This document shows, piece by piece, positions 16,549 to 61,965 of a stretch of DNA of 64,000 nucleotides. The notes below the pieces were generated by a model, which saw nothing but the letters and a program-made list of their open reading frames with translations, was not told where the DNA came from and made no database searches. Made by a program: the position numbers and the translations under genes. This stretch comes from an uncultured Omnitrophica bacterium. GTDB taxonomy: Bacteria > Omnitrophota > Gorgyraeia > JACQQV01. The stretch covers positions 82,015 through 146,014 of the forward strand of contig CAMTXH010000010.1 of NCBI GenBank assembly GCA_947085655.1, given 5' to 3'. Each line of letters opens with the position of its first letter. Positions within the stretch are counted from its first letter, which is position 1.

Positions 16549-17906
16549 AGAGGAACCTCTTGGACGTCCTGGCTGGATTTCTCCGCATGGGACAACCCGA
16601 CCGCAAGAAAGATCAGGGCGTAATAGAGCGTCATGGCACGGTGCCGGAACAACGTCCCAAGATTCGAGTCGATAAGGCCCATGAACAAAGAGAAGCCTAT
16701 AAAAATGAAGAGCATCAAATGGGTTTCTCTGCGCGCGTAGTGCAACGCCTGACGCATTCCCTGGATGATAAACGGAACGCAGAAGTAGAGGACGGAGATC
16801 TCGATGGCCCCGATGAAGAAAAAGGTGCTCCCGATCTGCCAGGGGAAGGGTGCGAAGAGGGCATAGACGATCCCAAGGGGGGCGAATAAGAGAAGGCCCC
16901 TGATGTCGGACAGACGCGACTCCTCCAAAAAGGAGGACGTTCCATAGGCCCTCACCGTCCTAAGATAATTAAACCACTCGAGCGGAGAACTCTTCTCCAC
17001 AAAAAAGGTCTTGAGCATCGTTTCCTGCGTCCCTACATGATAGACATGATATAAATAAGCAAGGGGCGCCACCGAGATAGCGACAAGGATGATGAGCAGG
17101 ATGCACAAGAATTTCATCTTTCTCCAGAGCAGGGTCGATCCTAAAAACCAAACTGTGCCAAAGAGCAGAATAAGGCCCAAGGCGGGTGCCCTCAGCAAGA
17201 AAAGCAGATACGCAAGGACCAGGCCGGCCAAGAGAGACGGCACCTTAAGGCGCTTCCGATTCTCGATCAGGCACCAGACCAGGAGGAAAACCATTATATT
17301 GACCGCAGGATCCCGAAGGTTTAGAGTCGACCAGAATAAAAGCGACGGCCAGAAGGCGGAGAAGATCAAGGCGAGACGGGCCGGTCTTGGACCGAAAAAC
17401 TTCTGTGTGAAGAGATAGACGAAAATGGCAGACCAGGTCCCGATCAAGGCATTGATAAACAAGAGGGACAATGGGCTCTTGCCGGTTACGGCGTAGAGAG
17501 CCGCATTCCAGGCTTCAAAAGGACCGGGATTGGTATCTGTCTGACTCTTAAATAACATGGACTCTTCATGGAAGACCCCCCGCTCACGCAACATCAGCAT
17601 CTGCCAGGCGTTTTCGCTGTACGCGTATCCGTCATTTGCGAAATAAAAGCCGGGCCGGAAGCCCATGTCAGCATAGGAAAGGATGTTAAAGGGCAGGATG
17701 AGACTGACGCGAAGGAGGATTGCAAGGAGGAAAATATGAATCACTTGGCCTCTTTTTTCCTGGGAGACGCCCATAGAGACGAATGCAATCCCGGCGAGGA
17801 TCCCGGCTAACAATATCAGCCAGGGGCTGATCCACCCCAACCCAAAGCCCAGCTCCGAAACCCATCCCTGCAGAGGAAAATCCCCCAACAGAAAATCTCG
17901 CATCAT
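16545..17906 (-). CDS. polytopic integral membrane protein, possible GT-C glycosyltransferase or polymerase
   Basis: 453 aa, more than 10 hydrophobic segments, no recognisable soluble domain; operon position next to GT2/GT-C pair. Confidence 0.35.
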   Translation of the reverse strand: MMRDFLLGDFPLQGWVSELGFGLGWISPWLILLAGILAGIAFVSMGVSQEKRGQVIHIFLLAILLRVSLILPFNILSYADMGFRPGFYFANDGYAYSENAWQMLMLRERGVFHEESMLFKSQTDTNPGPFEAWNAALYAVTGKSPLSLLFINALIGTWSAIFVYLFTQKFFGPRPARLALIFSAFWPSLLFWSTLNLRDPAVNIMVFLLVWCLIENRKRLKVPSLLAGLVLAYLLFLLRAPALGLILLFGTVWFLGSTLLWRKMKFLCILLIILVAISVAPLAYLYHVYHVGTQETMLKTFFVEKSSPLEWFNYLRTVRAYGTSSFLEESRLSDIRGLLLFAPLGIVYALFAPFPWQIGSTFFFIGAIEISVLYFCVPFIIQGMRQALHYARRETHLMLFIFIGFSLFMGLIDSNLGTLFRHRAMTLYYALIFLAVGLSHAEKSSQDVQEVPL

Positions 17907-19585
17907 TTGAAAACCTCAGCCGGTCGGCCCTTTTCAAAATGCCGCACCCACTCCCGCCAACCATCACCCTCCGTGACCTGGGCGCCTTTCCGGGCCTGCG
18001 AAAAGAGCTCCGAGGGGGTAAAATAACGCGCGCCCGGAATGTGCAGATCCGAAAATTTCTCACCGAGTAGAACACTGGAGGACGCCGAGTCCCTCTTCTC
18101 CAGCCGATCCCGAACCCAAACAGAGCCCGCCTCTACAAAGCGGACCTCTCGTTCGAACCCGAAATGTTTACCCCGGTTATTTTGAATCAGCAGACGTCGC
18201 AAGAAACGTTTGAGCGGGAAGGCGACCGGTGCCCTGAGACTCGATAACCAGCCGACGATGCGCAGCACAAAAAGCTTCCATGTAGAAAGGAGGTGCGTCT
18301 TGCGGTGAAAACAGGATCCTGTCACCCGAAATCCATTGGGATGGACTTCTACCCGGCACTTAGGATCCAAAACACCGGCGATACTGGTTCCGGAAGCGCT
18401 CTTCGCAACGATTCCGGCATCGTACAAAACCTCGTTCCCCTTTTTGGAAAACCACTTGAAGGTCCCGCCTTTTCCCAGGTTCGCCACCAGATACCCTTCA
18501 GGATCCCCATGAACCAGAAGCTGGGCACTTGGGAAATAGCGGTGGAAATTTTCGACCTCACAGGGCAACTGTTCAATGCCCGTAAGGGACAGGCTGCCCG
18601 ATGTCTCCGCCGCTTGAAGAAAGGGGTAGGCGATATAACAAAGATACCGGTCATCCAGATCGTATAGGCCGATCAGGGTCCGCTTTTCCAACCCTTCTCT
18701 CACAAACGCTGCCATACGGGCCGCCACTACGCTGTAGGGGGCAAGGATCTCGATCCCGTGGGGAATCAGGTACTCGGTATTCCGGCTGCCATACTCCCCT
18801 CCCGCGGTGCCGTTCGGATGGAGGAAGTGACTGAGGAATTGCAGGGATTTTTCCAAAACAGGAAGCAGCGATGGGTCCTGAACCTTCTGGAAATACTTGG
18901 CCAGGTAATCCACCGTCAAGGAGAGATAGCCGATATCAGGGCCTCCGTATTCTTGAAACCACCCTTCTTCACTCTGATGTCTCAACAAGAAATCGATTTT
19001 CTGGCGCGCGCCCCTTTCAAATTGCCGATCCTTTGTAACAAGAAAGAGGTTCTGGAGGGCCGCGGCGGCCCCTGCTTCCTGATTGAGTACGTCGTGTTCG
19101 TCATGTTTCAGAAGCCAGGCCCCTGCCCGCGCCAGCGCTTCCACACCCTCCTGACACTGAATCTCGTCATCCAGCGCAAGGAGGGCCTCTGAAACGGCGT
19201 ATGAAGAAAAAGCGGTCGCCACAAAGCTCTTCTCCCCCGGATACCACTCGCTGAAGGAGCCATCGCGCGCTTGGATCTGACACCAAAAATGAAGGGCTGC
19301 TTCGACCCAACGTTTCAGAAGCGGGTTTCCCTCGTAAGGAGGGTAGCCGGATCCTTTTCTGTAAAGGAGGGCAAGCGTCAAGGCCGCCTCCTGAAAGCGG
19401 ACCCCTGCAAAGTCCGTCATCTTGTAATGCCAAAAGGTCCTGTCAAAACAACCGTACGTTGTGGAACCCGGATGCCGGTCCAGGAGACTCAAAAGACGCG
19501 GGACCTGCTCCAAGACTTGAAGTCGGTAAACGTCCCCGCTCTCCTGCTTGGACTCTCTCATCTCATCAAGGGATATCGGTCGCAT
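17903..19585 (-). CDS. uncharacterised soluble protein, paralogue of 41949..42923 with 240-aa C-terminal extension
   Basis: shares TYGCFDRTFWHYKMTDF...QEAALTLALLY and EWYPGEKSFVATAFSSYAVSEA blocks with the 324-aa paralogue; no recognised catalytic motif. Confidence 0.4.
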   Translation of the reverse strand: MRPISLDEMRESKQESGDVYRLQVLEQVPRLLSLLDRHPGSTTYGCFDRTFWHYKMTDFAGVRFQEAALTLALLYRKGSGYPPYEGNPLLKRWVEAALHFWCQIQARDGSFSEWYPGEKSFVATAFSSYAVSEALLALDDEIQCQEGVEALARAGAWLLKHDEHDVLNQEAGAAAALQNLFLVTKDRQFERGARQKIDFLLRHQSEEGWFQEYGGPDIGYLSLTVDYLAKYFQKVQDPSLLPVLEKSLQFLSHFLHPNGTAGGEYGSRNTEYLIPHGIEILAPYSVVAARMAAFVREGLEKRTLIGLYDLDDRYLCYIAYPFLQAAETSGSLSLTGIEQLPCEVENFHRYFPSAQLLVHGDPEGYLVANLGKGGTFKWFSKKGNEVLYDAGIVAKSASGTSIAGVLDPKCRVEVHPNGFRVTGSCFHRKTHLLSTWKLFVLRIVGWLSSLRAPVAFPLKRFLRRLLIQNNRGKHFGFEREVRFVEAGSVWVRDRLEKRDSASSSVLLGEKFSDLHIPGARYFTPSELFSQARKGAQVTEGDGWREWVRHFEKGRPAEVFK

Positions 19586-41948: not shown

Positions 41949-42923
41949 TCATTCTTTTGACTCGTAAGATTCAACCGCTGCACCCACCGCATGCCTTTCG
42001 GAAAGCGCCCAAAGGACCGTTTCCAGATAATCCGTTGTCAGCGGCATAAAATAACGGTCGTCTAACCAAACAGGGTTTAACAAAGTTCCCTCCTCGAGTC
42101 CACGGCATATCCTTTCGAAAACGGGACTTCCGAAAAACGCAACGCCGTACGAATAAAGGAACTGGGTCTTCCGGCTCATCCGGTGATGGTCATAATGTCC
42201 CTTTTCGTCGATTCTCTCCTCCAAAAATCCAAGGGCGCGCTTGAGCGATTCCAAAAGAACGGGATCTTTTGTCCGTTTCCAATAGTGCGCCAGACAACCG
42301 ACAATCAGGGAAAGATAGCCGACGTCAGCCCCTCCGTACTCGGGAAAATACCCTGACGACTCTTGAGAAGAAAGCAGCCTGGACAATTTCTCCTCGGAGG
42401 CACGCAGATAGGGGGTGTTGCTTGTCAAATGGTAAAGATTTAAAAGCGCGCAAGCCGCTGCCGCCATCTGATTGGAAACGTCCGGATTGTTATGGCGCAT
42501 CAGCCACTTTCCCGTTTTTTCAAGACGCTCGCCATCGCTCCTCCGGAGGAGAAGCATCGCTTCCGTGACGGCCCAGCAGGTAAAAGCGGTGGCGCAAAAC
42601 CCCCGTTCGTTCGGGTAGGCCTCATCCACGCTTCCGTCCCGGTGGCGACGCGAAATCCAAAATTCGATCGCCGCCTCTGCCCACTGCTTCACCTGTCCGT
42701 TCTGGTAATAAATGTTCCCGTCAAAATTCCCCTGATAGAGAAGCGCCAAGAGCCAGCACGCTTCCTGATACCGCGTATTCGGAAAGTCGATTGACTTGTA
42801 GTGCCAGTACCCGCGGTCGAAACATCCGAATGTCTCAGAAGAGGGATCCCGGTCGCCCAATCCCAATACGCGGGGCACCTGGCTTAAGACAATTTCATGG
42901 ATTCTCTCGAGAGACTCTTTCAT
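41949..42923 (-). CDS. uncharacterised soluble protein, paralogue of 17903..19585
   Basis: ETFGCFDRGYWHYKSIDFPNTRYQEACWLLALLY and EAYPNERGFCATAFTCWAVTEA blocks shared with the 560-aa paralogue. Confidence 0.4.
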   Translation of the reverse strand: MKESLERIHEIVLSQVPRVLGLGDRDPSSETFGCFDRGYWHYKSIDFPNTRYQEACWLLALLYQGNFDGNIYYQNGQVKQWAEAAIEFWISRRHRDGSVDEAYPNERGFCATAFTCWAVTEAMLLLRRSDGERLEKTGKWLMRHNNPDVSNQMAAAACALLNLYHLTSNTPYLRASEEKLSRLLSSQESSGYFPEYGGADVGYLSLIVGCLAHYWKRTKDPVLLESLKRALGFLEERIDEKGHYDHHRMSRKTQFLYSYGVAFFGSPVFERICRGLEEGTLLNPVWLDDRYFMPLTTDYLETVLWALSERHAVGAAVESYESKE

Positions 42924-55635: not shown

Positions 55636-56337
55636 TCACTTGGATTCTGTTAAGATTTCCTCCGCATCCGCCGTCACGGTCTTGCGCCGCTCTTCCTCCT
55701 TCCACACCGTCCTGAAATAGTCGAGGAAGAAAAAGAAGAAGTAGCCCCCTACCCCGGAAGCGAGCAGGGCACTCAGAACCTTCTTGAGGGTGTGCCTGGG
55801 ATTGGGACCTTGCGGTGGTAATGCGCGATCAATCACCTTCAACATCGGCTTTTCGGCTGTCAGACCAAGCTGTTCGTTGATGACATTGAGATGGTCAACG
55901 CAGAAATTGGCAAGCGCCGCCGAAAAGTCCGGATCTTCTGTGGTTGCCTGAACCATGAAAAGCGTCCCTTGGGAGACGTCGTGTCCGCTGATCATCAAGG
56001 GAACCTTCCGAAGCACCGCCTCCCTTGTTGCCCCATACCTTTGAGTCAGATCAAAATGGTCCACCACCCCCTCGGCCATTCGTCGCGTTTTCAAGAGGTA
56101 GCTTAATGACGTCACGGAGGTGGGCGTGCCGCCTCCCACTGAAATTCCCAACACCGGAGCCCCCTTGAGCGTCTGCTCGGGGGCAGGCGGAAAGGTACTG
56201 ACTCTTGCGGTGTATGTTCTCGGCGTGATCATCGTAATCGATGCCACGATGACCACCGAGATCGTCATCATAACAAAAAGGTACCCCTTGTATTTCCGGG
56301 CAACCTTCCCGTAGGTCAAAAGTGTAATATCAGCCAT
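55636..56337 (-). CDS. Wzz-like polysaccharide co-polymerase (chain-length determinant, small PCP)
   Basis: ORF 55636..56514 trimmed to MADITLL...; N-terminal TM (YLFVMMTISVVIVASITMI), periplasmic segment, C-terminal TM (LSALLASGVGGYFFFFF). Confidence 0.5.
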   Translation of the reverse strand: MADITLLTYGKVARKYKGYLFVMMTISVVIVASITMITPRTYTARVSTFPPAPEQTLKGAPVLGISVGGGTPTSVTSLSYLLKTRRMAEGVVDHFDLTQRYGATREAVLRKVPLMISGHDVSQGTLFMVQATTEDPDFSAALANFCVDHLNVINEQLGLTAEKPMLKVIDRALPPQGPNPRHTLKKVLSALLASGVGGYFFFFFLDYFRTVWKEEERRKTVTADAEEILTESK

Positions 56338-56341
56338 GTTT

Positions 56342-59300
56342 TTAATCGACCGCGGCGATCGCGATCGCTCCAAAGGCGACTTTGAAGAAGAAGTCGGCCG
56401 TTTCTTTGACAAAATTAAACCTCGCGGACTTGTACCGGAACGCTTCCGGAACCACGATGGTGTCTCCCCGTTCCACCTTTTTGAGCCGGATAAACTGGCT
56501 GTAGGCCTCGCCATTGGCCTTGACGAGATAAATCCTCTTCTCGTCTGCGCCTTTGGTCAGGTCACCCGCTTTGCGGAGATAAAACTCGACATTTTTGCCC
56601 TCCGCAAAGGAGACGGCCGTGGGATTGTAGACATTCCCGACCACGAGAACAGAAGAGGGGACCGGTGGAACCTTAAGAGAATCCCCGTCTTCAAGAACAA
56701 AATCATCCGGTGTCCCTTCGAGTTGATCAGGTTCGGCGAGCTTGACGATCATCCTTCCCAAATATTCTTTATTCTTGATCTGTTCCATGAGTCTCTCGTG
56801 ATATTGAGCAAGATCCATCCTGGACTGTTTTTGTCCAGGATCAAACCCCGCTCCCAGCGAGGCCACTTCCTGAAGGAGCGCCAATTGCTCCGACTCAAGG
56901 AAAAGCTTCGCCCGTTCCTTCTCTTCCTTCCGCAACGACTCGCGGGTAAAGACAGTCCCCTTCAGAAAGGCCTGATCCGTAAAACCGCCGGCGCGCTGAA
57001 TGACGGAGCTGAGTCGCTCGCCCTGGCGGATGACGTACTCTCCGGGATAAAGAAACTCGCCGGAAAGTGTCACGGTTGCCGGCTGACGATCCAAATGGGA
57101 TTGGTGGATAAAGAGGCGGTCTCCTTCTGAGAGGTAAAGATCCTTCTCGGCCGCGGTGCCTTCAAGAATTCCCCGGACGTCCAGGGGAATCATGGTGAGG
57201 GAAGTCTCTCCCGGTTTGAGGCGGAAAAGTTCCGCATTCTCCAAAGCGGCCGTCGGCTTGAATCCTCCCGCGCGGAAGAGAAGGTCGCTCAACCGCATTT
57301 GATCCGTCAGTTCATATTTTCCTTCTTGGCGGACCGCCCCGTGGATTTCGACAAACGGGGTCATCACCACGTCACTTCTCGAATAGATTCTCACAATATC
57401 CCATTCCTCCAAGAGGATATTCTGGGAGGGTTCTCCCCGAATGGCGTCTCCGAGATTCACCCGGATGATCCTGCGCATGTTGTCCGCTTGAAAACGGGAG
57501 ACGTCGGCCCGGTCAAAATAGGTCCCTTTCCGAAGACCCCCTCCTTTTTCGATCAGATCTAAAATCCGCATTTGTCCCTTCAACTCATAGTCTCCGGGGC
57601 GAACGACATTGCCTGCGAGTGAGATATACTGATGCCGTCCCGGCGAAATAGGCGAAATCAGCACCAGATCCCCATCCCAAAGCCGGACTTCGTCCCCCAA
57701 ACGCGCCAGTTCACGCGACCCCTTAAATTCAAGATCGAGTACCACCTTTCTTTCCCGGTCTTGGACCCGTTCGATTTGGATCCTCTGAAGATATCCGATC
57801 GCGGTGGGGCCGCCTGCCATCTCCACCAGTTCGTCGAGATGAATCGAAGAGGTCACTTCATAAATGGCAGGACGTTTAACGCTTCCGGCAATGCCGATCA
57901 CCTCGCCGATGGGCGGAACCAGAATCGTGTCATTCGCCTCCAAGGGGATATCACCCTCCTTCTCGCCTTTCAAAAGGAGTTTGTAAAGATCGAAGGTCGA
58001 CTCCTCGTGACCTTCCCGCAACAGTTTGATCCCTCGCAACGTTCCCAATTTCGTCGGGCCCCCGGCTGCATAGAGCGCATGAAACGCGGTAGATTGTGGG
58101 TTGAGAAGGTAAGCCCCCGGCCGTTTCACCTCTCCCAGAACAAAGATCCGGATCGTGCGGAGTCTTCCCATCGTGATACTGAGATTGACATTCGAGTAGT
58201 GTTCGGTGAGACTCTTCTTGAGGAGTTCTTCCGCCTCTCCGAACGTCAATCCCCAAACATAAACGGGCCCGACCTTGGGCAAGAGGATTTTTCCATCCCG
58301 ATCCACGGTCACCGGAAAGGTTCCCTGCATGGCACCCCACATGCTGACGACAATGGTATCCTCCGGGCCCAACACATAATCGGAAGCAACCGGGACGCTC
58401 GATGCCCCCGCACTAAAGGTGTCGAGACTGTCAAAGCTGGATTGGGGGACCTGTTTTCCCATTTCACCCCCGAGGAGAGACCCGGTCAACTGCGAAAAAA
58501 CATTGGAAAAGGAAGAACCCCTCCCGAGAGCCCCTTCCTGTCTGAGAAAGGGTGATGTCAGTTTCTGTGATTCCGGAAAAATATCGTAGCCAAACTGCCG
58601 GATATTCCGGGGGATGCCCAGCGAGATTTCCTCCGAAAACATCATTTCGATGCGGGATAATTCCAGAGGCCGGGTCTCCGGCGCGCGGGCACCGCCGAGC
58701 AGCGCCTCTTCTCCCCGGGGTCCTTGGGGAATCCCTGCCTGTCTGACAATATTTTCCGCCGCAGACTCAAACGCCTCGCCCGTAAAAGGCGAGAACAGTT
58801 TCATTTGCTCCAAGGGATCGACCATGGCCTTGAAGAAGCGTCCATCGGTGGGACTTCTGAAGGTGGTCATGCTGAAGTTTTCACGCAGTTCATCCATCGT
58901 CAGTTGATTCACGCTCAACCGGAATTCGGTGCCGTCATAAGGGCAGCGGAGTATCTGTCCCCCTTCCCCACTTAAAAGGGCGCCGATCTCCAATTCCGCT
59001 TTGAAGATTTTCCCGTCCACGGGACAACGGACATCATAGACACCCTTCTCCGCTTTCTGCTTGAAGCCGGGCATCGGAGTATAAAATTCGTAACCGTCAT
59101 AAGGACAGGTAACCCGCATATTTCCCGCACGGAATGCCTCCTCTGATTTGTCCACTTCGATTTCAAACATCCTGCCGTCCCGCGGACAGGTCACTGTGGT
59201 GAACTCGACATCTTCCAGAGCTCTCCTGCCGAGTGCGTCCGTGACCCTCTGCTGAGGAAGTTTCGGTAATAGACCCTCCTGCGCTTCCAGGGAAACACCG

Positions 59301-59386
59301 ATTTCTCCCAAAAGAAGGACTCCTATACTGAAAACGATTCCCAGACACCGTCTTGCAACAGCACTTTTCTGATTCCGGGCACTCAT
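56342..59386 (-). CDS. outer-membrane polysaccharide export protein (OPX/Wza family) with N-terminal 27-residue tandem repeats and multiple SLBB domains
   Basis: signal peptide MSARNQKSAVARRCLGIVFSIGVLLLG; Poly_export signature PVASDYVLGPEDTIVVSMWG near aa 333; repeated ...GD.L.I. SLBB-like units to aa 1014. Confidence 0.75.
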   Translation of the reverse strand: MSARNQKSAVARRCLGIVFSIGVLLLGEIGVSLEAQEGLLPKLPQQRVTDALGRRALEDVEFTTVTCPRDGRMFEIEVDKSEEAFRAGNMRVTCPYDGYEFYTPMPGFKQKAEKGVYDVRCPVDGKIFKAELEIGALLSGEGGQILRCPYDGTEFRLSVNQLTMDELRENFSMTTFRSPTDGRFFKAMVDPLEQMKLFSPFTGEAFESAAENIVRQAGIPQGPRGEEALLGGARAPETRPLELSRIEMMFSEEISLGIPRNIRQFGYDIFPESQKLTSPFLRQEGALGRGSSFSNVFSQLTGSLLGGEMGKQVPQSSFDSLDTFSAGASSVPVASDYVLGPEDTIVVSMWGAMQGTFPVTVDRDGKILLPKVGPVYVWGLTFGEAEELLKKSLTEHYSNVNLSITMGRLRTIRIFVLGEVKRPGAYLLNPQSTAFHALYAAGGPTKLGTLRGIKLLREGHEESTFDLYKLLLKGEKEGDIPLEANDTILVPPIGEVIGIAGSVKRPAIYEVTSSIHLDELVEMAGGPTAIGYLQRIQIERVQDRERKVVLDLEFKGSRELARLGDEVRLWDGDLVLISPISPGRHQYISLAGNVVRPGDYELKGQMRILDLIEKGGGLRKGTYFDRADVSRFQADNMRRIIRVNLGDAIRGEPSQNILLEEWDIVRIYSRSDVVMTPFVEIHGAVRQEGKYELTDQMRLSDLLFRAGGFKPTAALENAELFRLKPGETSLTMIPLDVRGILEGTAAEKDLYLSEGDRLFIHQSHLDRQPATVTLSGEFLYPGEYVIRQGERLSSVIQRAGGFTDQAFLKGTVFTRESLRKEEKERAKLFLESEQLALLQEVASLGAGFDPGQKQSRMDLAQYHERLMEQIKNKEYLGRMIVKLAEPDQLEGTPDDFVLEDGDSLKVPPVPSSVLVVGNVYNPTAVSFAEGKNVEFYLRKAGDLTKGADEKRIYLVKANGEAYSQFIRLKKVERGDTIVVPEAFRYKSARFNFVKETADFFFKVAFGAIAIAAVD

Positions 59387-59413: not shown

Positions 59414-61051
59414 TTAAAAACGAAACACAGTTTTCAGGGAAAAGATGTGGTTGTGGGAATCGATACCCGTGGATCCCCTAAAATTGTTGACATCCTCAAA
59501 TTGATAAGCAAAAATCAAATCCACTTTGTCCGAGAATTCATACAGAAAATCCACTTGGACCTCGTTTTTGGCCAGGGCCGATTGTCCGAACTGAAGCGCT
59601 TCTCCCGAAATACCCCGGCGCTCCCGGTCAAACTGAAACCCCGCTACAACCCGCTTCCCCAGGACGTCAAAGACCTGACTCAATCGGAAAAAGAAATCAT
59701 CCGAATCCGGTCCCGCATGGTGTCCGAGAAATTCGTTCTTGAAACGGTGTCCCGAGGTATGAACAAAATGCTCATAGGCGTTTTTATGGACTCTCACCCC
59801 CTCAAAACGGAAATCAAGACCTGGCCAGGAGAAAAGGTCTGTGATCAGGAAGCCGCCCAGATAACTCACAAACTCGGGAATATAAATCCCTTTTGTGTCC
59901 TCGCCGAAGAACTCGCCGTACAGTTCAAGGCCGCTTCCCACTTTGATCCACCTGGCCAACTCAGCAAGAAAAATCCGAAGATCCGCACCAAAAAGATGAT
60001 TCGCTCTCTCCTCGGTCGCACCCCCCTCGGTGGGATCGAGGGCATTCAAAAAATCAATGAAGCCCTCCTCTTCGCCTTCGCCGCCGAAGAGAGCCAGATG
60101 GGAAGCCCCCACCACCAGACGTCGTGTCGGAGACCACTCAAACCGGGTTCCCGTCAGAAAAGACTCCTTCACGGTCCGTTTTTCCTCAAGCCGCGCTCCG
60201 ATGAGCTGGGCCTCCCATTTTCCGAGCTTCTCCAGCTTCCATGGAAGCCGAAAACCCCGCAGGGTCCTCAGGGAAAAGGCCCGAAGGGGTCGGGGGTTGT
60301 TCGTCAACAGAAGGTCTCCGTGGTACCCGGGACCCCACCAGAAATTCAGAAGCCCCCCTTTCAACTCCAGATTCCAGTAGGCCAGTTTGGCCGACGCCTC
60401 TTCCAGATCCAGATCAATGTCCGAATCCTCCTCGCTCCCCCGAAGACCCGGATTGAATGTCGCCGCAAACCAATCCCCCAGACTGAGCCAGGACGGGAGC
60501 GTCCCTCTTCCGTTGAAGCCGTCTTTGAGCCGAAGGCCTTGAGAATTCTCAATGAGGGAGGTGCTGTTCTGGCGATCAAATGAGGTCAGAAATTTTTCAC
60601 CCACCAGCATCGTCCCGAACATCGCTTCCTTCCACTGAAACGGCTGGCCCGGCCTGCGGGCCTCACCCCTCTCCCCCGCTTCCGCGACGCCGAGAGCGCG
60701 AAGTTCCGGAGCAAACGTCTCGGAAAGGCGGAGGAGATCCTCTTCGATCTGATAGGCCATCTCCGATGAGAGGTTCAGGTCTTTCTCTTCGATGGTTTGA
60801 ATCGCTTCCGCGACCCGCCGGGCGACCCAGTCTCGTGTCGCAGGACGCAACCCCAAGCCAAGCCCCTCACACAGACCTCTCGCCGCCAGGCGCTCGACCG
60901 CTTCGATGCTCCAGTCGCGCACAGACAGGTCAACCGGCGCCGCCGAAGCCTCGGCACCAAACAGAAGAAGACCCAGAAGAAAAGACCAGCGGATGAAGGC
61001 GCAAGGATGTCGAAAGATCAAGAGATCTCCTTTGCCAAAGAACGAAACCAC
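59414..61051 (-). CDS. putative outer-membrane beta-barrel protein (Wzi-like or OPX partner)
   Basis: N-terminal signal-like hydrophobic stretch WSFLLGLLLFGAEASA; amphipathic alternating strands; C-terminus ...IFSLKTVFRF ending in Phe as in OMP beta-signal. Confidence 0.4.
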   Translation of the reverse strand: MVSFFGKGDLLIFRHPCAFIRWSFLLGLLLFGAEASAAPVDLSVRDWSIEAVERLAARGLCEGLGLGLRPATRDWVARRVAEAIQTIEEKDLNLSSEMAYQIEEDLLRLSETFAPELRALGVAEAGERGEARRPGQPFQWKEAMFGTMLVGEKFLTSFDRQNSTSLIENSQGLRLKDGFNGRGTLPSWLSLGDWFAATFNPGLRGSEEDSDIDLDLEEASAKLAYWNLELKGGLLNFWWGPGYHGDLLLTNNPRPLRAFSLRTLRGFRLPWKLEKLGKWEAQLIGARLEEKRTVKESFLTGTRFEWSPTRRLVVGASHLALFGGEGEEEGFIDFLNALDPTEGGATEERANHLFGADLRIFLAELARWIKVGSGLELYGEFFGEDTKGIYIPEFVSYLGGFLITDLFSWPGLDFRFEGVRVHKNAYEHFVHTSGHRFKNEFLGHHAGPDSDDFFFRLSQVFDVLGKRVVAGFQFDRERRGISGEALQFGQSALAKNEVQVDFLYEFSDKVDLIFAYQFEDVNNFRGSTGIDSHNHIFSLKTVFRF

Positions 61052-61965
61052 TCCACGGTCCGCCGGAGTCCCTCCTCAAAGTGAACCGGCGTATTGCATT
61101 TGAGAAGACGCGTTGCCTTGGAGACATCCGCCAGGGTCTTTCGGACATCCCCCCGGCGTGCCGGCCCGAATTTGGGAGAAACTTTTTTGCGCAAAATTTG
61201 GTTGACCGTCTCGAGAACGTCCAGAACACTCCGCCCTTCCCCGCAAGCGATATTGAAAACCTCACCCGAGACATTCGGTTGAACCGCTGCCTGCAAATTG
61301 GCCTCAACGACATTGTCGATATAGGTGAAATCGCGCGATTGTCTTCCATCTCCATCCACGGTCGGAGATTCATTTTCAAGAATTTTCAGGATGAATTTTG
61401 GGATCACGGCGGCATATTCCGACGCCGGGTCCTGACGGGGGCCGAAGACGTTGAAATAGCGGAGACTGACCGTCTCAAGCCCATAGGCGTGGGTAAAGAG
61501 TTTACAATAGATTTCACCGGCAACCTTTGAAGCGGCGTAAGGAGAGAGAGGATTGAGGGGAAGATATTCCGTTTCGGGAAAATGGTCCGTATTCCCGTAG
61601 ACGGAACTCGATGAAGCAAAGACGACGCGTTTGACCTTTGCTTCGACGGCGGCCAGCAGAACCTGAAGGGTGCCGCCGACATTGACGTCGTTCGTCTCCG
61701 CCGGGTTGTCAAAGGATTTGGGAACCGAGCGGAGGGCGGCCTGATGGAAAACGACATCGACCCCCTTGAGGGCCCTGCTCAGGCATTCCGGGTCACGGAT
61801 GTCTCCTTCGACCAGCTCAAGGGAATCGCTTATGCCTTCCAGGTTCTCACGGCGGCCCTCAACAAAGTTGTCCAGAACCCGCACCCGCTCTCCCCGGCCA
61901 ACAAGTGCTCTGGCAATATGAGAACCGATAAACCCAGCGCCACCCGTGACTAGTTTAACGCCCAT
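61018..61965 (-). CDS. NAD-dependent nucleotide-sugar 4-epimerase (extended SDR, WbpP/CapD-like)
   Basis: KLVTGGAGFIGSHIA, YAASK catalytic motif; first gene after the intergenic promoter region. Confidence 0.8.
   Translation of the reverse strand: MGVKLVTGGAGFIGSHIARALVGRGERVRVLDNFVEGRRENLEGISDSLELVEGDIRDPECLSRALKGVDVVFHQAALRSVPKSFDNPAETNDVNVGGTLQVLLAAVEAKVKRVVFASSSSVYGNTDHFPETEYLPLNPLSPYAASKVAGEIYCKLFTHAYGLETVSLRYFNVFGPRQDPASEYAAVIPKFILKILENESPTVDGDGRQSRDFTYIDNVVEANLQAAVQPNVSGEVFNIACGEGRSVLDVLETVNQILRKKVSPKFGPARRGDVRKTLADVSKATRLLKCNTPVHFEEGLRRTVEWFRSLAKEIS

Follow-up and report, generated by a model that had tools for sequence, protein, structure and literature searches.

Proteins for outer-membrane polysaccharide export (OPX) have been catalogued by domain architecture: class 1 members carry 1-14 SLBB domains, and class 2B members consist of Poly_export, a variable number of SLBB domains, GfcC and a C-terminal helix, with a median length of 824 residues and mostly ordinary Sec signals (Saidi et al. 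2022, PMC9603273). Canonical zinc ribbons of the MJ0042 type (Zn_ribbon_4/5) are found in the cytoplasm and have four Cys as ligands; one of them, a zinc_ribbon_5 module, is the ZnR domain by which Caulobacter ZitP binds PopZ (PMC5182065). Here we analyse a 64,000-nucleotide stretch of DNA (the window) from an uncultured Omnitrophica bacterium, in which an OPX gene (56342..59386, minus strand; open reading frame list and translation) encodes a 1014-residue protein with six short repeats ahead of its Poly_export domain. The protein is 100% identical to P0001 of the NCBI metagenome-assembled genome (MAG) GCA_964374045.1, and the window is identical to a contig of that MAG. Our results make it probable that the six repeats are the knuckles of three tandem units of ~45 residues, derived from zinc ribbons and forming a clamped accessory tail in the periplasm.

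The mature region of the protein has Cys at residues 67, 94, 121 and 148 only, each within a CP(R/Y/V/Y)DG..F motif and at an exact spacing of 27; the only other cysteine, Cys14, lies within the signal peptide. Two degenerate copies follow in which Ser stands for Cys, SPTDG at residue 178 (spacing 30) and SPFTG at residue 199 (spacing 21), and all copies, contained in 58762..59203 (residues 62-209), are N-terminal to Poly_export and SLBB. Chance does not account for this pattern: 0.0013 CPxDG motifs are expected in a shuffled protein of the same composition, two or more occurred in 0 of 20,000 shuffles, and in-register 21-mers of the repeats are 19-43% identical, compared with 6.6% for random 21-mer pairs. 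An earlier reading of the letters by themselves (the sequence-only reading) had described these four Cys copies and two Ser copies before Poly_export/SLBB, and the translation, the shuffles and the positions in orthologues bear it out. Tandem Repeats Finder detected no DNA-level repeat; therefore, the copies are old and diverged rather than recent duplications or strain-variable. The six repeats make up three units, as follows.

59081..59209, minus strand: ribbon unit 1, residues 60-102, with knuckle 1 (C67-P-R-D70-G) and knuckle 2 (C94-P-Y-D97-G), the former repeats 1 and 2
58916..59047, minus strand: ribbon unit 2, residues 114-157, with knuckle 3 (C121-P-V-D-G) and knuckle 4 (C148-P-Y-D-G), the former repeats 3 and 4
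58766..58873, minus strand: ribbon unit 3, residues 172-207, Cys-free, with knuckle 5 (S178-P-T-D-G) and knuckle 6 (S199-P-F-T-G)

A full-length query retrieved ~30 orthologues that cover the N-terminus, at 42-53% identity, nearly all of the named ones being Candidatus Omnitrophota/Omnitrophica; when only the N-terminal 294 residues served as query in a word-indexed search, no homologue was returned. The module sits at the same place in the orthologues, with six knuckle positions, and the motif positions are conserved in 30-odd of them. Repeat number is constant among the orthologues: six knuckle positions are found throughout, their decay differs, and the one exception is a sub-clade that keeps only the first and last knuckle. 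The knuckle sequences are distributed as follows.

P0001-P0013 (window clade): knuckles 1+2, CPxDG and CPYDG; knuckles 3+4, CPxDG and CPYDG; knuckles 5+6, Cys-free
P0016-P0027: knuckles 1+2, CPxCG and CPYDG; knuckles 3+4, CPxCG and CPYD(K/N); knuckles 5+6, CPxD(K) and CPYDG
P0014, P0015, P0022, P0025 and locus L005: knuckles 1+2, Cys kept; knuckles 3+4, SPFTG and DPYTG, both Cys lost; knuckles 5+6, Cys-free (in P0025, CPKCG and CPYDG)
P0125 and P0127: knuckles 1+2, one Cys per unit; knuckles 3+4, one Cys per unit; knuckles 5+6, Cys-free

CPxCG is the textbook zinc-knuckle sequence. Odd and even knuckles differ: CPxC occurs at odd ones only, and CPYDG is the signature of even ones, present at knuckle 2 in 33 of the 35 sequences of the knuckle table with P0125 and P0127 as the only exceptions. 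Moreover, the cysteines are coupled. In 34 sequences, the pairs (1,2), (3,4) and (5,6) have Cys at both knuckles in 71 cases, at neither in 25 and at one of the two in 6, whereas the shifted pairing gives 40, 5 and 23; these counts are not phylogenetically independent, although Cys has been lost from unit 2 or 3 in several separate clades. As Cys is kept or lost in pairs, the real unit is a pair of 27-residue repeats. Counted over its four canonical ligand positions, a unit has three Cys in 32 cases, two in 39, one in 6 and none in 25, and four in no case. Separately, we observed that P0034, P0035 and P0037-P0040 have only knuckle 1 (CPxCG) and the last knuckle (CPYDG), separated by a Lys/Glu-rich insert of 80-100 residues; this again brings together three Cys and one Asp, from knuckles far apart in sequence.

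The module is related to zinc ribbons. A profile of one unit, built from 81 unit sequences, was aligned by hhalign with the repeats of P0129, which are tandem classical ribbons (Pfam Zn_ribbon_4 array at 3e-29). The probability was 97.3% and the E value 2.6e-11, in a register that aligns both knuckles and in which Asp70 and Asp97 coincide exactly with the second Cys ligand of each. Orthologue modules that bear CPxCG gave many sub-threshold zinc-ribbon matches; the P0025 module cleared two curated thresholds, 20.9 for TIGR02098 MJ0042_CXXC (score 23.3) and 25.2 for Pfam Cys_rich_CPXG (score 25.9), and the P0017 module reached 21.3 on Zn_ribbon_4, below the cut-off of 30.3. The sequence-only reading had taken one Cys per repeat to argue against a zinc ribbon, an argument overturned by the CPxCG of the odd repeats in orthologues, by the pairing of the cysteines and by the 97% hhalign match to Zn_ribbon_4.

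A search with the module profile against 1.84 billion representatives returned about a dozen 50%-identity clusters at E<1e-18, in which the module occupies residues ~50-230 of OPX proteins of ~1000 residues or of their fragments, and nowhere else. The next match was P0129 (E 3e-13), and the tail after P0129 consists largely of C2H2 arrays. This tail, together with matches of the profile to both natural and artificial C2H2 arrays among PDB sequences (2i13 at 7e-8 and 1mey at 6e-4), is what favours regarding each 27-residue repeat as an independent finger-like unit with its own ligand or metal, comparable to the C2H2 beta-beta-alpha finger with its period of 28. We consider such independent fingers very improbable: in no repeat is the knuckle followed by a second pair of ligands, His or other; the helices predicted by AlphaFold2 (AF2) are only 4-5 residues long and accompany hairpin pairs, with no recognition helix; and odd and even repeats differ systematically, lose Cys in pairs and align by hhalign with two knuckles per unit. 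The likeness to C2H2 arrays is limited to the CPxCGxxF knuckle and a period of 27-28, which yield significant HMMER scores; unlike those arrays, the module lacks His-x3-5-His, and its knuckles pair up instead of making one site each.

Structure prediction shows the repeat region to be folded, in three discrete units. The AF2 model of residues 55-215 (27-sequence alignment; mean predicted local distance difference test score, pLDDT, 77.8) consists of three hairpin/short helix/hairpin units joined by low-confidence linkers. Between the units, pLDDT falls below 50 at residues 107-110 and 160-167 (module residues 53-56 and 106-113). The same hairpin/helix/hairpin elements appear in the full-length AF2 model (mean pLDDT 79), in which the repeat region 60-207 is folded at ~78-89 and residues 218-328 are largely disordered. 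In the full-length model, they are strands 60-66/73-79, helix 83-86 and strands 91-93/100-102 in unit 1 (pLDDT 83-88); strands 114-120/127-133, helix 134-138 and strands 144-147/154-157 in unit 2; and strands 172-177/184-189 and 196-198/205-207 in unit 3. Foldseek found no significant global match of the three-unit model in the PDB, and the only meaningful local match of the module was the ZitP zinc finger 2nb9, a nuclear magnetic resonance structure (probability 0.69, target TM 0.56). Neither PKD nor fn3 matched the module at E<=10 in Pfam, and the AF2 units are hairpin pairs of ~45 residues, not an Ig-like beta-sandwich of 80-100 residues.

The sequence-only reading had suggested that the repeats could form inter-repeat disulfides or a beta-solenoid. 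A rigid stalk made of a continuous beta-solenoid or of an inter-repeat disulfide ladder would agree with the regular period, with one Cys per repeat and with the even number of Cys (four) in the mature protein, which is compatible with two disulfides. It is hardly credible, however, given that AF2 predicts no continuous sheet, that between-unit spacings vary among orthologues (27/29/27), that one sub-clade has exchanged its four middle knuckles for a K/E-rich insert of 80-100 residues, and that unit 3 has no Cys. An inter-repeat disulfide is plausible; the solenoid gives way to three separate units with low-confidence linkers.

Several observations weigh against three zinc-ribbon-derived, clamped units, and we set them out together. 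The window module itself has no significant match to a zinc-ribbon family, the best being Zn_ribbon_5 at E 0.27. Each of its Cys-bearing knuckles has one Cys, and a four-Cys site (two CxxC) per unit is absent: units 1 and 2 read C-x2-D + C-x2-D and unit 3 reads S-x2-D + S-x2-T. None of the 34 orthologues has a unit with four Cys, the maximum being three, and hence none has a canonical Cys4 site. In P0125 and P0127, which are the most distant of the orthologues, only one Cys is left per unit; evidently, the fold needs no clamp. The Asp at ligand position 4 is kept in 17 of the 27 even knuckles without Cys; its role may thus be to form a turn and not to bind a metal. Finally, relatives without the module have the same Wzi-like and short Wzz/polysaccharide co-polymerase (PCP) neighbours; therefore, no specific partner can be deduced from gene context.

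We propose that the canonical CPxCG knuckles have been eroded in the window lineage, with Asp replacing the second Cys in the Cys-bearing knuckles and with unit 3 left Cys-free. The make-up of the repeats, their pairing, the relation to zinc ribbons, the predicted fold, the place within the protein and the restricted occurrence are results of the analysis; the clamp and the role of the tail are inferences from them. In units 1 and 2, Cys67/Cys94 and Cys121/Cys148 would hold the two knuckles together, through a Cys-Cys disulfide or through a metal ion that Asp70/97 and Asp124/151 help to coordinate. A metal clamp has, in our estimate, close to an even chance of being correct: most Cys-bearing knuckles have Cys or Asp at both ligand positions, and the three-Cys units of relatives, which disulfides could not satisfy, count for metal. 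A disulfide clamp is a serious possibility with somewhat less than an even chance, as the module is periplasmic by position and the number of Cys in the mature window protein is exactly four. To our knowledge, structural Cys2Asp2 zinc sites are rare, which also speaks for the disulfide. The literature was searched for cases in which disulfides have taken the place of zinc ribbons in the periplasm, with nothing usable found. Zinc ribbons are overwhelmingly cytoplasmic; the present module is expected to be exported, because a basic N-terminus, a hydrophobic segment and a conserved A-Q site precede it.

The ribbons fill a hypervariable accessory slot. The window protein has, between the module and Poly_export, the segment SRIEMMF...QFGYDIF, a conserved motif at the start of the common OPX core; this SxIExxF...QFGYDIF segment is also found in long OPX proteins without the ribbon module. 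What lies between the signal peptide and this segment differs completely among long-OPX lineages (P0029-P0065, N-terminal 100-230 residues): some have acidic spacers of low complexity, P0033 has a helical repeat of ~33 residues four times in tandem, and P0051 and P0057 have a segment resembling FN3 (Pfam fn3 at 18.8 and 13.8 bits, below threshold). This interchangeability could mean that the module is a decaying relic that serves as spacer only, one of many interchangeable sequences that bridge the signal peptide and the OPX core. In addition to the diverse contents of the slot, the progressive loss of Cys across clades (3, 2, 1, 0 per unit) and the presence of the same partner genes with or without the module are in line with a relic. 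We nevertheless consider a mere spacer unlikely: the module has 16 invariant columns and a mean column identity of 53% (27 module sequences, 25-41% identical to the window module), CPYDG is retained at knuckle 2 almost throughout, and even unit 3, which has no Cys, is predicted to fold with good confidence. The conserved columns, CPYDG and the predicted fold together argue for purifying selection on a folded domain.

The position of the module suggests how it might work. The spacing to Poly_export comprises ~35 disordered residues, the SxIExxF...QFGYDIF segment and a second disordered stretch of ~60 residues, so that the ribbon array of an assembled exporter would hang as flexible periplasmic arms from the channel base that faces the inner membrane. 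E. coli Wza contacts the co-polymerase Wzc through its D1 (Poly_export) ring (PMC12881504); going by position, the arms would come out beside the co-polymerase. We infer that the array may act as an accessory tail for docking or tethering to a protein or the envelope and would not be part of the conduit. The idea of a docking tail draws on the protein-binding role of ZnR domains in the cytoplasm, for example in ZitP, and it fits the unrelated inserts found at the same position in other long OPX proteins. A more specific version, in which the array is a periplasmic metal-binding (Cys3Asp/Cys2Asp2) or thiol-redox-sensitive module that gates docking of the long OPX tube to the short co-polymerase or to the cell wall, seems quite improbable to us. 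If such gating by reversible clamping of the knuckles were true, polysaccharide export in Omnitrophota would be coupled to the periplasmic zinc or redox state.

The remainder of the protein is that of an OPX protein, with Poly_export and at least one SLBB domain after it both present. Its parts outside the ribbon units are the following.

59282..59386, minus strand: signal peptide, residues 1-35, with a basic n-region and a hydrophobic helix 10-26; predicted Sec type
58394..58765, minus strand: linker, residues 208-331, mostly disordered, containing SRIEMMF (244-250) and QFGYDIF (264-270)
58169..58393, minus strand: Poly_export (PES/Wza D1-like), residues 332-406; Pfam PF02563, 1.6e-17
56447..58150, minus strand: SLBB beta-grasp series, helical hairpin (816-871) and GfcC-like last domain, residues 413-980; Pfam, AF2 and Foldseek
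56348..56416, minus strand: C-terminal amphipathic helix, residues 991-1013; AF2; sequence NFVKETADFFFKVAFGAIAIAAV

The hydrophobic segment of the signal peptide spans residues 8-26 (AF2 helix 10-26), and the likely cleavage site, judged by eye, is ...SLEA/QEG, the A-Q after the hydrophobic stretch being conserved among orthologues. Residues 1-330 have no Pfam match, and pLDDT in the linker is below 50 at 218-241, 243-255 and 274-328 in the full-length model. Poly_export scores 63.9 bits against a cut-off of 28, SLBB 179 bits over 6 stretches, SLBB_2 109 bits over 5 stretches, and Caps_syn_GfcC_C 16.4 bits, below its cut-off of 20. Foldseek matches of the full-length model include Wza 2J58 (~1e-15), GfcC 3P42 (3e-9) and the Myxococcus class-3 OPX protein WzaB. 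Pfam detects no Wza_C match; by position and predicted structure only, helix 991-1013 is a candidate for a Wza_C-like outer-membrane-spanning helix. We also noted that the AF2 helical hairpin (816-843 and 850-871; 56774-56941, minus strand) lies between the SLBB series and the GfcC-like last domain. The sequence-only reading had put the protein at 2-3 times the length of characterised Wza/KpsD/GfcE proteins; the size resides mostly in the SLBB domains, the helical hairpin, the GfcC-like domain and the C-terminal helix and not in the repeats. Because catalogued architectures already have several SLBB domains, a GfcC-like domain and a C-terminal helix, the great length is mostly ordinary for this OPX branch, and the unusual part is the ~300 residues before Poly_export.

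The immediate neighbours of the OPX gene are as follows.

61018-61965, minus strand: NAD-epimerase; its open reading frame overlaps that of the Wzi-like protein by 34 nucleotides
59414..61051, minus strand: Wzi-like outer-membrane beta-barrel protein, 545 residues, upstream neighbour; Pfam Caps_assemb_Wzi 4e-60
55636..56337, minus strand: PCP-like protein, 233 residues, downstream neighbour; two transmembrane (TM) segments and a Pro-rich/GxxxG motif before TM2

The PCP-like protein, annotated as a 233-residue gene in the public record, has a weak match to the chain-length-determinant family TIGR03007 (7.6e-7) and no Pfam Wzz match. A Wzi-like gene adjoins the OPX gene in 5 of 5 related loci (L001-L005), and PCP-like homologues lie downstream of OPX in L001-L004, directly in three and ~2 kb further on in L003. 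The cassette conserved across related loci is NAD-epimerase, Wzi-like barrel, long OPX and a very short (~230 residues) PCP-like protein, so that the co-polymerase is unusually short where the OPX tube is very long. That the module tracks a particular partner gene was considered and rejected, as a Wzi-like protein and a short PCP stand equally beside module-less OPX.

The cassette belongs to a large glycan cluster: from ~16500 to 62000 of the window (~45 kb), every gene examined is on the minus strand and glycan-related. The cluster encodes glycosyltransferases, several methyltransferases, two AsnB-like amidotransferases, a MurJ-like flippase, a Kdo-transferase-like protein, at least five PMT_2/ArnT-like membrane glycosyltransferases and a B12-binding radical SAM enzyme; a set of NeuB, HAD phosphatase and cytidylyltransferase suggests nonulosonic acid. 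No Wzc-type tyrosine kinase was found among the window open reading frames scanned. Two open reading frames with no Pfam match, 41949-42923 (minus strand, 324 residues) and 17903-19585 (minus strand, 560 residues), have clearly similar N-terminal regions (…VPR(V/L)L.L.DR.P.S.T(F/Y)GCFDR..WHYK..DF…), and on the strength of this likeness they seem to be paralogues, members of a family in the glycan cluster that has no annotation.

The distribution of the module is narrow. A scan of GTDB species found it in four Omnitrophota MAGs and in one labelled Planctomycetia, and the Planctomycetia-labelled MAG shows the same epimerase/Wzi/OPX synteny. An alphaproteobacterial MAG (L006, JBFWVF010000003.1, 5842-6618, plus strand) encodes a protein of 258 residues with a signal-peptide-like N-terminus, two single-Cys knuckles (TCPYDGTVF ... 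TCPTNGFVF) and then a helical region; this may be a separate instance of a ribbon that is exported and keeps one Cys in each knuckle. Membership of the L006 protein in a known zinc-ribbon/TPR family was dropped, as it has no Pfam match. The literature searched contains no paper linking zinc ribbons, or Omnitrophota, with OPX proteins, and the OPX papers searched never mention a zinc ribbon, in agreement with the earlier statement that such a repeat module is not described for characterised Wza/KpsD/GfcE proteins. The domain combination is new, and so is the variant, an eroded and exported form of a fold already known; the exporter that carries it is of a known kind too, and the whole does not amount to a new kind of system.

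Published OPX catalogues start the proteins at Poly_export, and the present family reveals a variable N-terminal slot in long OPX proteins, which in Omnitrophota and close relatives is occupied by an exported triple array of zinc-ribbon relics. With 3, 2, 1 or 0 Cys per unit across clades, the array offers a natural series for a metal-clamped fold adapting to, or decaying in, the periplasm, and it bears on what sits at the OPX/co-polymerase junction of very long tubes with very short co-polymerases. The practical value is modest, as the organisms are uncultured.

Compared with described systems, the exporter resembles class 1/2B OPX proteins (E. coli Wza, KpsD) in having Poly_export, several SLBB domains, a putative GfcC-like domain and a predicted C-terminal helix; like most class 2B members, it has a Sec/SPI-type signal, here a predicted one, and like class 1/2B OPX genes, its gene lies in a large glycan cluster with a Wzi-like barrel and a short PCP. 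It differs from catalogued OPX proteins, which start with Poly_export or rarely with GfcC, in that ribbons and linker (~300 residues) precede Poly_export. The module, in turn, resembles MJ0042-type ribbons (Zn_ribbon_4 PF13717/Zn_ribbon_5 PF13719, TIGR02098): both have two knuckle-bearing beta-hairpins per unit of ~40-45 residues; both share the signature x-x-(V/I)-x-CPxCGxxFx(V/I)... G...(V/I)xCPxxGxxF; and both are N-terminal, typically so in the MJ0042-type ribbons. Unlike MJ0042-type ribbons, however, the module never exceeds three Cys per unit (in the window protein, units 1 and 2 keep two each and unit 3 keeps none) and has Asp at the second ligand position; it also lies behind a predicted signal peptide, which would place it in the periplasm, forms a triple array and is fused to an exporter.

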